Shown here: positions 18,386-30,623 of the stretch, piece by piece | Position numbering within the stretch: position 1 is the stretch's first letter | Layout of the letters: the number at the start of each line of letters is the position of its first letter | NCBI GenBank assembly: GCA_945859975.1 | Contig: CAMAPH010000001.1 | Location: 32,001-96,000, forward strand | Reading direction: 5' to 3' | DNA from: Chthonomonas calidirosea | GTDB taxonomy: Bacteria > Armatimonadota > Fimbriimonadia > Fimbriimonadales > Fimbriimonadaceae | DNA: 64,000 bases | Notes under the pieces: model-generated | What the model was told of the DNA's origin: nothing | Database searches by the model: none | Seen by the model: the letters and a program-made list of their open reading frames with translations, nothing else | Made by a program: the position numbers and the translations under genes

Positions 18386-18398
18386 GTAAACCTTGCGG

Positions 18399-19088
18399 GT
18401 GAAGCTTAAGTTCGTACTGCCGTGTCTTTTCCTGGTTCAGATGGCCACGGCACAAACCGTCTGCATTGACGCCGGACACCCGAGCGAGGTCGGCATGGGA
18501 ACCAAGGGCAAGGTTCATACCGAAGTCAGCCTCGCTTGGAAGATTGCCAAGGGCCTGCAGAAAGCACTTGAGGCGGAAGGCGTAACGGTCGTTCTGACGA
18601 AATCAGAGGAACTCGAAAAAGTCCTGAATCGACGGCGAGCCGAGATCGCCAACGACGCGAAGGCGGACCTTTTAATTCGACTCCACTGCGACGCCGCATC
18701 TGGCACCGGCTTCGCGGTGTACTACCCCGACCGCACCGGAACCACCAAAGACGGCATCACTGGCCCTAGCAAGGACGTGCTGGCGAAAACCGCGATCGCC
18801 GCGAAGAAGTTTCACGCCGTCTATGCAGCCGCTTTGAAAGGCGCGCAGAAGGATAACGGTCTGAAATCTGATCTTAAGACTGCCATCGGCGCGAAGCAAG
18901 GCGCGCTCACCGGTTCGATTTTCTCCAAAGTCCCGGTTTTGCTCGTCGAGATGTGCGTGCTCACGAACCCCGCAGACGAAGCATTCATTGGTTCCGGTGA
19001 CGGCCAGCAAAAGATCATTTCGGCAATGACGAAAGCAACCCTTGCCGTGGTCAAACCTGCCACCGCGAGCCAAAAAGCCCGGTTATAA
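18399..19088 (+). CDS. N-acetylmuramoyl-L-alanine amidase (Amidase_3), secreted
   Basis: Signal peptide; IDAGH, E, RLHCD, LLVEM zinc/catalytic residues. Confidence 0.92.
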   Translation: MKLKFVLPCLFLVQMATAQTVCIDAGHPSEVGMGTKGKVHTEVSLAWKIAKGLQKALEAEGVTVVLTKSEELEKVLNRRRAEIANDAKADLLIRLHCDAASGTGFAVYYPDRTGTTKDGITGPSKDVLAKTAIAAKKFHAVYAAALKGAQKDNGLKSDLKTAIGAKQGALTGSIFSKVPVLLVEMCVLTNPADEAFIGSGDGQQKIISAMTKATLAVVKPATASQKARL

Positions 19089-19097
19089 TAACAGTCA

Positions 19098-19252
19098 TTG
19101 CGAAGGGTGCCCTGTCGTGGGGCATCTGTAAATTGGGGAAAGTCCGGTGAAATTCCGGCACTGTGCCGCAACGGTAGATCGACCTTGGTCGAAAGTCCGA
19201 ATGCCCGCTTCGCAGAAAAGAACAGCGAGTGCTGTCACCTACGAGCATGGGT
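19098..19252 (+). ncRNA. Cobalamin riboswitch (compact, class-II-like)
   Basis: P1 TGCGAAG/CTTCGCA; GGGAA-GTCCGGTGAAATTCCGGCACTGTGCCGCAACGGT core; B12-box-like AAGTCCGAATGCCCGC; downstream ACCTACGAGCATGGGT P13-like hairpin. Confidence 0.9.
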
Positions 19253-19325
19253 CCCCGGAGCGGCGCAACGTCGCCTCCCTGTCCATTTCTCCGCAACTGA
19301 CGGCCTTACCCGTGTGAGGTTCAGC

Positions 19326-20090
19326 ATGAAAAATCGAGCGTTTACTCTCATCGAGCTTCTCGTCGTCATCGCCATCATCGCGATTCTCGCCGCCATCCTC
19401 TTCCCAGTCTTCGCCCAAGCCAAGGCCGCCGCCAAAAAGACCCAGTCGCTGAGCAACCTCAAGCAGATCGGGCTCGCCTGGCTGCTTTACGGCAACGACT
19501 ACGACGACACCATGATGCGCGTCGCTACCGGCTCCGCCGCTTCAGGCAAGGTGTTTTACTGGTGGGGCAGCTTCGACGGAGCTACCCTTAGAGAAAACGA
19601 GGGGCTGCTCTTTCCGTACACCAAGAACAAAGGAATTCAAACCGACCCGGCATTCCCGGAAACTCTGCGGACCACCGTAGGGCTGACCGGATATGGCTAC
19701 AACTACAACTATCTCAGCCCGACAGATTACGTTCCGCCGACCTACAACGAGGTGGCAAAGCCCGTGAACTATGGCGCGGTGGGATCGGTTGCCGACACCG
19801 TTGCTTTTGGTACATCTGCGCGGATGAGCTTTGGCCTGCCGCATCAGCTTGAGGGCAATACATACCTGGAGCCCCCGTCCAGCGAGTACCCAACCTTCCA
19901 CGGGCGGCATTTGAGCACCGGGTTAGTGGCATGGGCCGATGGGCACGCAACAGCATTCCGCCCGAAGCTACGACGCGGAACGTTCGGTTATGGTGGAGCC
20001 TACAACGAGTCCGAGTTCAACCCGGTCCAGCTCGGTGAGCTAGACCGAGACGGAGACTTTTCGACCGACGAACTGTTCGATCTCGAATAG
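19326..20090 (+). CDS. Prepilin-type N-terminal cleavage/methylation protein with C-terminal H-X9-DG motif (DUF1559-like)
   Basis: [52 protein letters not shown] at 19908-19943. True start ATG 19326 with a GAGG SD. Confidence 0.92.
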
Positions 20091-20092
20091 GA

Positions 20093-20515
20093 TCAGCGTC
20101 GCTCGACCGTGTCGATTCCGAGCTCCCAGAACCACACGGTCGAGTTTGCCGGCACTACCTTTTGGTAGGTTTCGTTCGTGCCCTTGCGGGTGACGCGAAT
20201 GCTGCAAACTCGATCGTTCGGAGAAGTGTTCACCACGTACGCCCGGTAAAGCGTGAATGAGGGCTGGACATCGAATCGAAGCTCTTGGATGCTCGGGTTG
20301 GAGCACCACTCAGGTTGGGAAGACAAAGTGCATTCCTGACCGGCACCTGGAACGCGATTGCTACGCGTGACGACGATTTGCGTGTTTGCCGAATCCGTGG
20401 TCGCGAAGTTGAGGGTCGTAGGGACGGCCTGAACAAACGAAGTGCCACCGCACCCAGATAGGGCCGAGACGGCAATAACTACTGACGTGAGCCAAAGAGG
20501 GTGAATGTTCTTCAT
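20093..20515 (-). CDS. Hypothetical lipoprotein
   Basis: Lipobox LSGC after a hydrophobic leader; beta-rich mature part. Confidence 0.75.
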   Translation of the reverse strand: MKNIHPLWLTSVVIAVSALSGCGGTSFVQAVPTTLNFATTDSANTQIVVTRSNRVPGAGQECTLSSQPEWCSNPSIQELRFDVQPSFTLYRAYVVNTSPNDRVCSIRVTRKGTNETYQKVVPANSTVWFWELGIDTVERR

Positions 20516-29669: not shown

Positions 29670-30623
29670 TTAGTTCCGCGACGCCGCGTTCTCTTGCTCG
29701 GCACTGCGAGCGTCCATGTTCGGCAGATGCTCCGTCGCGAACGAACGCAGGTCCTTCGCGGCAAAATCGGCTCCTGCCGATAGGAAGCGCGCCGGATCCT
29801 GATTGACCATCGCGCCTCCTACGCCAATCGTATATGGCTGGCGACGGTCTCGGACGCGGACCAGTTCCTTCAGCAAAGCTTCGGTATCCGCCGCACTCTC
29901 CTCTGCGGCGCAGCTCAACAGAACCAAAGTTGGTCGGTGGTTGCGCACCGTGGTGATGAAGCTCTTGACCGGCACGTTGGCGCCGAGGAACAGCGTGCGC
30001 CATCCATGTAGGCGAAGGTAGTCGCCAATCATGCGAAGTCCGATGACGTGCCAAGAGTTCGGCGCGCAACCAAGAAGGGCAACCCGGCCGTGCCGACGCA
30101 TTGGCCCCATGATCTGCGAGGTTCGAGCCAACATTCGCTCCGTAACCGCGCTGGCCATGTGCTCCTGGGCCTCGTCAATCGCTTCGACCTTCCACCAGTT
30201 CCCAACCATCGTCATGGCGGGGGCCAACAAGTCCTCGTAGATTTCGATCAGTGAGACCTGCGCGCGGAATGCGGCGTCCATGATCTCGGAGCAAGTCTGC
30301 TCATCACCCTGAACTGCGGCTCGGGCGTACTCTTTGGCCAGTTCGCCCAGGTGCACGTCGGCTGCGCGCAACTCAGGCTGCGTGAATACGGAGTTCACAA
30401 TCGCTTCAATCTCTGGCGTAGCAAGGCTGTAATAGACCTGTCGGCCCGATTTGGTGGCTCGAACGATACCGCGTGCTCGCATTCGTGCGAGGTGGTTGCT
30501 CACGTTCGGCTGCTTCAGATCCGTGGCTTCACAAATTTCCGAGACGTTCCTATGCCCCGCTCGAAGCTCCGCCAGAATTTGGCGACGCGAAGTATCTCCG
30601 AGTTCTTCATAGACGTTTATCAT
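29670..30623 (-). CDS. ArsR/SmtB HTH fused to a CarH-type cobalamin-binding module
   Basis: N-terminal LGDTSRRQIL..QPNVSNHLARMR..G..VYYSL; helical cap with W-x9-EH; Rossmann domain WHVIG, GW..LFLGANVP, LLSC, VGG. Confidence 0.88.
   Translation of the reverse strand: MINVYEELGDTSRRQILAELRAGHRNVSEICEATDLKQPNVSNHLARMRARGIVRATKSGRQVYYSLATPEIEAIVNSVFTQPELRAADVHLGELAKEYARAAVQGDEQTCSEIMDAAFRAQVSLIEIYEDLLAPAMTMVGNWWKVEAIDEAQEHMASAVTERMLARTSQIMGPMRRHGRVALLGCAPNSWHVIGLRMIGDYLRLHGWRTLFLGANVPVKSFITTVRNHRPTLVLLSCAAEESAADTEALLKELVRVRDRRQPYTIGVGGAMVNQDPARFLSAGADFAAKDLRSFATEHLPNMDARSAEQENAASRN

Follow-up and report, generated by a model that had tools for sequence, protein, structure and literature searches.

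Vitamin riboswitches control genes for the synthesis, transport or bypass of vitamins. Here we describe a cobalamin riboswitch that stands in front of a lone gene for a type IV prepilin-like protein with an H-X9-DG motif. Both lie in a window of 64,000 nucleotides (nt) taken from the forward strand of contig CAMAPH010000001.1 (positions 32,001 to 96,000; assembly GCA_945859975.1). The source genome (G000; 3.12 Mb, 95.8% complete) belongs to the Armatimonadota, order Fimbriimonadales, and each gene absence reported for it means not found in this 95.8%-complete assembly. The best reading of the comparative sequence data is that the riboswitch-linked prepilins form a dedicated, phylum-wide clade whose job may be corrinoid acquisition.

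Characterized cobalamin riboswitches turn uptake genes off when B12 is plentiful (PMC6143338). BtuG, BtuH and BtuJ of Bacteroides are encoded in riboswitch-controlled loci, BtuH and BtuJ having DUF4465 domains, as described in PMC6143338, PMC8941943 and PMC13398666. The likeness to the window protein is that of accessory, non-transporter envelope proteins under a cobalamin riboswitch that are made when B12 is scarce. The Bacteroides proteins, however, are lipoproteins that act together with the TonB-dependent BtuB and adopt beta-propeller or jelly-roll folds, whereas the window protein carries a prepilin signal and is predicted to fold like a pilin. By analogy, the riboswitch-controlled, B12-binding lipoproteins of Bacteroides appear to be its closest functional relatives, a likeness in function and not in descent.

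The bindosome of Sulfolobus solfataricus consists of sugar-binding proteins that have a class III signal, depend on Bas assembly and feed ABC importers (PMC3047682). Here the likeness is that of nutrient-binding proteins with a pilin-like signal, reliant on a pilus-assembly-like ATPase and platform. The bindosome is archaeal and uses classical solute-binding folds, whereas the head of the window protein appears pilin-like and its gene has no linked assembly genes; nor is riboswitch control a feature of the bindosome. The analogy is functional only. ComP, the DNA-binding minor pilin of Neisseria competence pili, offers a pilin head for a specific cargo, which in its case is DNA. The cargo of uptake pili is brought in by retraction through a secretin, and G000 has secretins and ATPases of PilT size. 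ComP structures were among the best structural matches to the window protein (5hz7_A, Z 4.8; 2nba, Z 3.5), the low Z values reflecting a shared pilin fold only. To our knowledge, no pilin is known to take a small molecule as its cargo.

In Planctomycetota, Verrucomicrobiota and Armatimonadota, few paralog families are as large as the prepilin-type H-X9-DG/DUF1559 proteins, for which we know of no assigned function. Members of these families (DUF1559 is PF07596, 'SBP_bac_10') share with the window protein a prepilin N terminus, a length of about 250-330 amino acids (aa), a C-terminal H-X9-DG motif and dozens of paralogs in each genome; the window protein differs in falling under the PF07596 cut-off. 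Full-text literature searches, with subscription journals and supplements outside their coverage, returned no paper on a cobalamin riboswitch with a prepilin, on DUF1559 with a riboswitch, or on Armatimonadota with both cobalamin and pilin. Among the matches listed, the papers naming both a riboswitch and a prepilin appear to concern other topics.

Riboswitch aptamer and leader

The elements of the window locus are as follows.

19099..19214 (+), cobalamin riboswitch aptamer, 116 nt from the P1 5' strand to the P1 3' strand (covariance matches and fold)
19099-19105/19208-19214 (+), P1 (direct reading)
19106-19113/19119-19126 (+), P2 hairpin (direct reading)
19215..19325 (+), leader and expression platform with a conserved motif, a GC-rich hairpin and a Shine-Dalgarno sequence
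19236-19252 (+), conserved hairpin-like motif CACCUACGAGCAUGGGU (direct reading)
about 19257-19279 (+), GC-rich hairpin of the leader
19316-19319 (+), Shine-Dalgarno GAGG, local pairing possible with GCCUUAC at 19303-19309
19326..20090 (+), monocistronic prepilin-type H-X9-DG gene of 254 aa, from the ATG at 19326 to the stop codon at 20088-20090
19326..19400 (+), class III (prepilin) signal with the leader MKNRA, predicted to be cleaved off ahead of F6, then E10 as Glu +5 and a hydrophobic helix
19689..19712 (+), G122-Y-G-Y125-N-Y-N-Y129 segment, clade-specific conservation
19908..19943 (+), H-X9-DG motif: H195, D205, G206, then H207 (direct reading)

The aptamer sits between an Amidase_3 gene (18393-19088) and the prepilin-type gene. 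Read directly, P2 is followed by the core and junction GGGGAAAG, the P4 hairpin, GCCGCAACGGU, P6 and the B12 box AGUCCGAAUGCCCGC; no large peripheral domain extends P6, which forms a simple hairpin. P1, P2, P4 and P6 were all present in the single-sequence fold of the window aptamer. At gathering thresholds, Rfam called two tRNAs only in the window and nothing at the aptamer site. Below them, the AdoCbl-II model RF01689 matched 19125-19214 (+) over its full length (model 1-81) with 36.2 bits against a cut-off of 36.5 (E 4.3e-7 in the local scan, 8.1e-7 genome-wide). RF00174, of the same Rfam clan CL00101, matched 19086-19226 (model 1-189) with 27.8 bits against a cut-off of 31.5 (genome-wide E 4.4e-5). 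The covariance-model check proposed in the earlier note thus gave significant matches to both models, each below its gathering cut-off. The window aptamer is the sole match to RF00174 or RF01689 in the 3.12-Mb genome.

Comparison with related copies allowed the fold to be evaluated. P1 of at least 5 bp, which joins the segment after the B12 box to the 5' segment, was found in 24 of 30 related copies with 22 distinct sequences, and the P2 hairpin in 17 of the 30 with 15 distinct sequences; both helices were tallied from unconstrained single-sequence folds, not from a structural alignment. A MAFFT alignment of the copies misplaced P1 and P2, and duplex-folding trim overshot. By this tally P1 and P2 appear to covary across relatives, and the core columns were invariant in an alignment of 25 riboswitch copies. 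The Rfam threshold is operational, and it is on comparative evidence that we class the window RNA as a cobalamin riboswitch. The earlier note had described a well-formed, class-II-like element with a short P6, and the better fit to RF01689 together with the short P6 is in line with the class-II-like description. Class-II-like architecture is tied to selectivity for methylcobalamin and hydroxocobalamin.

The gene starts 111 nt past P1 and 99 nt past the RF00174 match, close to the 70-110 nt previously estimated. The start at 19098 given earlier belongs only to a spurious frame, opened by a TTG and crossing the riboswitch; the true gene begins with the ATG at 19326. Within the gap, a motif of the form GCC[U/A]ACGAGCAU[A/U]GG occurs 10-25 nt past P1 in most genus-level leaders (including L006-L031). 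No terminator-like site was predicted on the + strand between aptamer and ATG, so control is probably translational. Whole-leader folds were not more stable than those of shuffled sequences (z -0.81 and z -0.41).

Two possible tertiary contacts were considered. The ACGA of the leader motif could pair with UCGU in GUCGUG, the conserved loop of P2; this putative loop-loop contact would differ from the textbook L5-L13 kissing loop, and because both partners are nearly invariant, covariation is uninformative for their pairing. No kissing loop between the P4 loop and the leader is proposed, as the complementarity search gave scattered 5-mers only and no covariation.

The prepilin-type protein

The prepilin leader seen in the earlier note is borne out by N_methyl PF07963 (34.2 bits against a cut-off of 21.2, E 1.6e-8) and TIGR02532 (31.9 against 16.3, E 7.6e-8). 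Direct reading of the cleavage site gives F6-T-L-I-E10 preceded by Ala at -1, where Gly is usual; the orthologs have G or A. The exact H-X9-DG motif was likewise read directly as H195-X9-D205-G206. D205 and H207 were invariant in a 40-sequence ortholog alignment, the exact H-X9-DG spacing occurred in 8 of 61 paralogs of G000, and many orthologs read D-T or D-S. PF07596 reached 16.4 bits against a cut-off of 23.3 over residues 31-60 only, short of membership by hidden Markov model, and no NCBIfam H-X9-DG model (the domain that we take to be TIGR04294) matched at E <= 0.01. Given this weak match, 'H-X9-DG-type, DUF1559-like' is the proper label and not demonstrated DUF1559 membership. The gene is followed by a convergent open reading frame (ORF) at 20093-20515 that starts with a lipoprotein-like signal, in agreement with the lone gene and convergent neighbor previously noted.

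An AlphaFold2 model built from 40 orthologs (predicted local distance difference test, pLDDT, 91.4; predicted template modeling score, pTM, 0.85) has a helix over residues 8-58 and then a beta-rich head. Foldseek found nothing in the Protein Data Bank (PDB) at E <= 0.001 for this model, and a profile search of PDB sequences gave matches to pilin N termini only. A wide search with VIA-align, which is independent of Foldseek, returned type IV pilins or pseudopilins as all of its best 15 chains (Z 5.4-3.2, weak), among them PilA4, ComP, PilV, EpsG, PilX and PulG. Judged from the model, the head appears to be pilin-like with insertions and with no recognizable cofactor-binding fold.

The C-terminal tail LGE[L/I]DxDGDxxTDELFDL[E/N] (residues 236-254, 20031-20087) is kept in Fimbriimonadales orthologs. 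It resembles a single calcium loop of the dockerin/EF-hand type and received no Pfam call.

Conservation of the riboswitch-prepilin pairing

RF00174 matched at E <= 0.01 in 35 of the 41 order-level genomes (G000 included), almost always exactly once, and its cut-off was exceeded at the orthologous position in 19 of the 41; the RF01689 cut-off was exceeded by L062 and L065 (39.3 bits). A prepilin-type ORF of 228-258 aa followed the switch in 26 of 30 order-level riboswitch loci, with its start 83-242 nt past the Rfam match. Across the phylum, RF00174 matched at E <= 0.001 in 147 of 151 sampled genomes, and a prepilin-type ORF stood behind the switch in 19 of the 30 best-scoring loci, taken one per genome. 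The riboswitch that the earlier note proposed to look for in orthologs is therefore conserved with the gene across both order and phylum.

Ortholog- and paralog-level loci from named Armatimonadota metagenome-assembled genomes (MAGs) were fetched by protein similarity. Three of the five ortholog-level loci had the switch upstream on the same strand, and none of the five paralog-level loci had a riboswitch. One of the remaining two ortholog-level loci had a switch on the opposite strand of a chimeric-looking contig, and the other had none at E <= 0.001. In L066 (2256-3000), from a MAG labelled Solirubrobacterales, an ortholog of 49% identity lies behind a long tandem repeat and the switch faces the opposite way; since the left half of the contig looks actinobacterial in composition, the assembly may be chimeric.

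Switch and ortholog were also absent together in two near-complete relatives. G028 (99% complete) and G036 (97%) had no riboswitch match and no full-length ortholog, their best matches covering only about 140 N-terminal residues (E ~1e-25). Their relatives G031 and G034 have full-length orthologs, 63% identical, at the riboswitch locus. This distribution points to loss of switch and ortholog together in G028 and G036.

Paralogs and a parallel thiamine switch

The prepilin-type paralogs of G000 number about 60, with counts of 58-62 according to the pattern used. A maximum-likelihood tree (quick IQ-TREE search, LG+G4) combined the 43 riboswitch-linked proteins that were complete with 48 paralogs 180-360 aa long, the latter drawn from G000 only. 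In this tree the 43 linked proteins all fell on one side of a branch, apart from the 48 paralogs, with a Shimodaira-Hasegawa-like approximate likelihood ratio support (SH-aLRT) of 99. Residues G93, G122, Y125 and Y129 are conserved in this B12-linked clade and rare elsewhere, as compared with the thiamine-linked clade described below and 47 paralogs. The last three fall within a G-Y-G-Y-N-x-x-Y segment. Conservation of F6-E10, Q47, Y55, D58, Y98, D205 and H207 is family-wide. As a lead, look-alike clusters in the ESM Atlas are labelled mostly Verrucomicrobiota.

An Rfam scan (E <= 0.01) of about 440 nt upstream of the starts of 60 other G000 paralogs gave a single match, a thiamine pyrophosphate (TPP) element. 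It and its gene lie outside the window.

G000:C2:19231-19337 (-), TPP riboswitch RF00059, 68.1 bits, the sole TPP switch in the genome
G000:C2:18389-19156 (-), TPP-linked prepilin paralog, 256 aa, ends WYWRCD (loci L159, L168)

Known riboswitches thus precede 2 of the approximately 60 paralogs in G000, each for a vitamin. Of the 41 order-level genomes, 39 had exactly one TPP riboswitch. A prepilin-type protein that differs from the B12-linked one and ends in WYWxCD directly followed the switch in 21 of 30 loci, G000 included; in seven other loci a ThiC-like gene, identified by eye, stood behind it. The 19 usable TPP-linked proteins formed a clade of their own (support 99), separate from the B12 clade, whose grouping was unchanged by their addition to the tree. 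Two vitamin switches, each on its own paralog, are the strongest support from sequence for the existence of ligand-specific family members, as they suggest that individual paralogs may be dedicated to individual vitamins. The earlier note had proposed a whole family of ligand-specific adaptors. The TPP switch on a second clade lends this independent support, whereas its extension to the family at large is an extrapolation from 2 of about 60 paralogs.

Genes beside or in place of the prepilin gene

The gene is monocistronic in most relatives and is followed by unrelated or convergent genes. In L017, L025 and L029, from three genomes of the same genus, the gene that comes next in the same direction codes for DUF4465 (E 1e-47 to 1e-53), a domain that binds B12 in Bacteroides BtuH and divergent family members according to PMC8941943 and PMC13398666. 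In L013, L014 and L066 the prepilin gene is followed by one for a PEP-CTERM protein, about 190 aa long and unmatched in Pfam.

The other 11 of the 30 phylum loci include a BtuF-like Peripla_BP_2 protein (L059), a ThiC-family radical-SAM protein and a dockerin-propeller protein, each of the three confirmed by Pfam, as well as PduO-like and CobA-like adenosyltransferases identified by eye. Dockerin modules were found in other proteins behind the same riboswitch in the phylum (L216, E 1.2e-4; L038, E 1.8e-6).

One contig, at L048 (G133:C50:4009-11863), carries four cobalamin riboswitch matches. Behind one of these stands a ThiC-family radical-SAM protein (PF01964, E 1e-178), which appears to resemble the benzimidazole-synthesis enzymes BzaA/BzaB rather than ThiC itself.

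Probable B12 requirement, uptake components and pilus machinery

The methionine synthase loci of G000 are as follows.

G000:C9:67994-69679, B12-binding and reactivation half of MetH, 561-aa ORF
G000:C2:118149-119087 and C26:38442-39257, also listed as split-MetH loci

The homocysteine-methyltransferase domain is present on two separate ORFs of 609-653 aa in G000. The separation of the B12-binding and reactivation half from the methyltransferase ORFs indicates a split, B12-dependent methionine synthase; in the relatives G031, G034 and G028, MetH is one protein of about 1160 aa. MetE, CbiC and methylmalonyl-CoA mutase were not found in G000. This gene content fits dependence on imported B12.

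A second B12 user of G000 lies in the window at 29673-30623 (-), a 317-aa protein with an ArsR-type helix-turn-helix, B12-binding_2 and B12-binding domains. It resembles the cobalamin-dependent CarH/LitR regulators and is possibly light-sensing.

The idea that the genome might lack BtuF-type parts did not hold, since G000 has one BtuF-type Peripla_BP_2 gene and one FecCD permease gene elsewhere, unlinked and lacking a riboswitch. A TonB-dependent receptor barrel was not found in G000 or in any of the five other members of its family; across the phylum, such receptors are present in 50 of 81 genomes. The pilus-type machinery of G000 comprises eight T2SSE-family ATPases above cut-off (four of them of PilT-like size), three secretins and one prepilin peptidase (Peptidase_A24).

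Seven tandem genes for prepilin-type proteins of 123 aa each (G000:C6:53282-56820, -) have a T2SSE ATPase (C6:58669-59826) and a secretin (C6:48518-48991) as neighbors. They are a candidate major-pilin array of one among three pilus-like systems.

Proposed function and alternatives

We put at about even the chance that the window pair is a B12-repressed, pilin-type component for corrinoid capture. This proposal builds on the conserved aptamer, the pilin-type signal and predicted pilin-like fold, the clade specificity, the operon linkage to DUF4465 in some relatives and the thiamine parallel. In the proposed mechanism, the riboswitch would sense cellular cobalamin and shut the gene off when B12 is sufficient, most likely at translation initiation. 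Under B12 limitation the protein would be made, the class III signal would insert it, and the single prepilin peptidase would cleave it before F6. The N-terminal helix may anchor the protein, or the protein may enter a short pseudopilus, and a pilus- or type-II-secretion-like machine would anchor or display it in the envelope. There the head would capture corrinoids, by direct binding or by helping capture, and these would be passed towards the BtuF-like/FecCD-type importer encoded elsewhere in G000.

Several results weigh against this proposal. The window aptamer is 0.3 bits short of the AdoCbl-II cut-off and 3.7 bits short of that of RF00174. The Shine-Dalgarno window was paired in 20 of 24 leaders, compared with a fraction of 0.82 in shuffled-upstream controls, which makes its occlusion indistinguishable from chance, so that the translational mechanism is inferred. 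The head domain matches pilins only, and weakly so (best Z 5.4). Pfam, NCBIfam, the PDB profile search, Foldseek and VIA-align gave no similarity to BtuB, BtuF, BtuG or BtuH/DUF4465, although proteins can be related to known B12 binders even where structural matches are weak or missing. Neither a DUF4465 gene nor a homolog of either PEP-CTERM protein was found in G000, so the protein would act there alone or with unlinked partners, and the window may represent the minimal form of the system. In L007, L010, L019 and L020 a secreted PEP-CTERM beta-propeller protein stands behind the switch instead, and no prepilin gene was found in the 1.3-3.3 kb read past the riboswitch. The distribution of MetH follows that of the pairing imperfectly: MetH occurs in G028, where switch and ortholog are both missing, and gave no match in G038, where the pairing is present. 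Finally, many members of the phylum have the pairing plus TonB-dependent receptors, and no anti-correlation between the two was evident across the phylum; given this coexistence, the protein is not simply a substitute for BtuB.

The PEP-CTERM protein that replaces the prepilin was considered as a BtuG-like protein and rejected: its model (pLDDT 80.8) is a generic beta-propeller whose top Foldseek matches were WD40 proteins, designed propellers and SMP-30-type lactonases, with no BtuG among the matches listed. In L010/L219 (G035:C34) no stop codon separates the PEP-CTERM propeller behind the riboswitch from a second secreted domain, whose C terminus is dockerin-like; these two parts are encoded by separate genes in G026.

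Some of the same data could be explained by a protein that binds no B12 itself and serves as a pseudopilin or minor pilin for the export, display or docking of separate B12 binders, so that the riboswitch would turn on a delivery route and not a receptor. The operon partners in relatives, DUF4465 in three loci and PEP-CTERM proteins in another three (L013, L014 and L066), are secreted, dockerin-type modules occur in other proteins behind the switch in the phylum, the head is ordinary and pilin-like with no recognizable cofactor site, and the three secretins and eight T2SSE ATPases of G000 would provide a route. We consider this rather unlikely, given that neither type of partner was found in G000 and that in most relatives the gene stands alone beside unrelated or convergent neighbors; a binder is easier to account for than a pseudopilin made for one cargo with no gene for that cargo linked to it. 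A role outside transport, such as adhesion to B12 producers or surfaces or a change in motility when the vitamin is scarce, is less probable again; the riboswitch would then serve behavior and not uptake. Adhesion and motility are classical roles of type IV pilins, the cyclic di-GMP riboswitch upstream of pilA1 in Clostridioides difficile is a precedent for riboswitch control of a pilin, and the protein has no similarity to transport proteins in Pfam or NCBIfam. The TPP-controlled clade and the DUF4465 partners, however, point to nutrient handling, in line with the known placement of vitamin riboswitches on synthesis, transport and bypass genes, and a 254-aa protein whose head has clade-specific conserved aromatics suits a specific ligand.

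The sub-threshold Rfam scores would also be expected of a decayed or chance riboswitch-like sequence in front of an ordinary, constitutive paralog. This explanation is very improbable and already contradicted by the comparative data: the local E is 4.3e-7, relatives at the orthologous position pass the cut-off, pairing is kept by 22 distinct P1 sequences around an invariant core, and the linkage to one protein clade extends across the phylum. Corrinoid capture by the window protein could, on the other hand, be one case of a wider scheme, in which H-X9-DG prepilins are ligand-specific cargo subunits of a pilus or pseudopilus import machine, displayed through a secretin and retracted by PilT-type ATPases so as to carry cargo over the outer membrane in bacteria such as the Fimbriimonadaceae, where no TonB-dependent receptor was found. 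Each clade would then serve one nutrient, namely B12, thiamine and, for the other paralogs, further ligands. We regard this extended scheme as speculative and doubtful.

Implications

Riboswitches report a ligand relevant to the gene that they control, and the two vitamin switches therefore give the family its first specific, testable ligands. The lone-gene layout in G000 is the cleanest experimental case because it has one switch, one gene and no partners. The import machine, if it exists, would be to bacteria what the bindosome is to archaea and would do for small molecules what DNA-uptake pili do for DNA. If the proteins bind B12 and thiamine, they would be a new class of vitamin-capture proteins. 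They might then also point to a way for large nutrients to cross the outer membrane independently of TonB, with a bearing on vitamin cross-feeding in soil and water communities.

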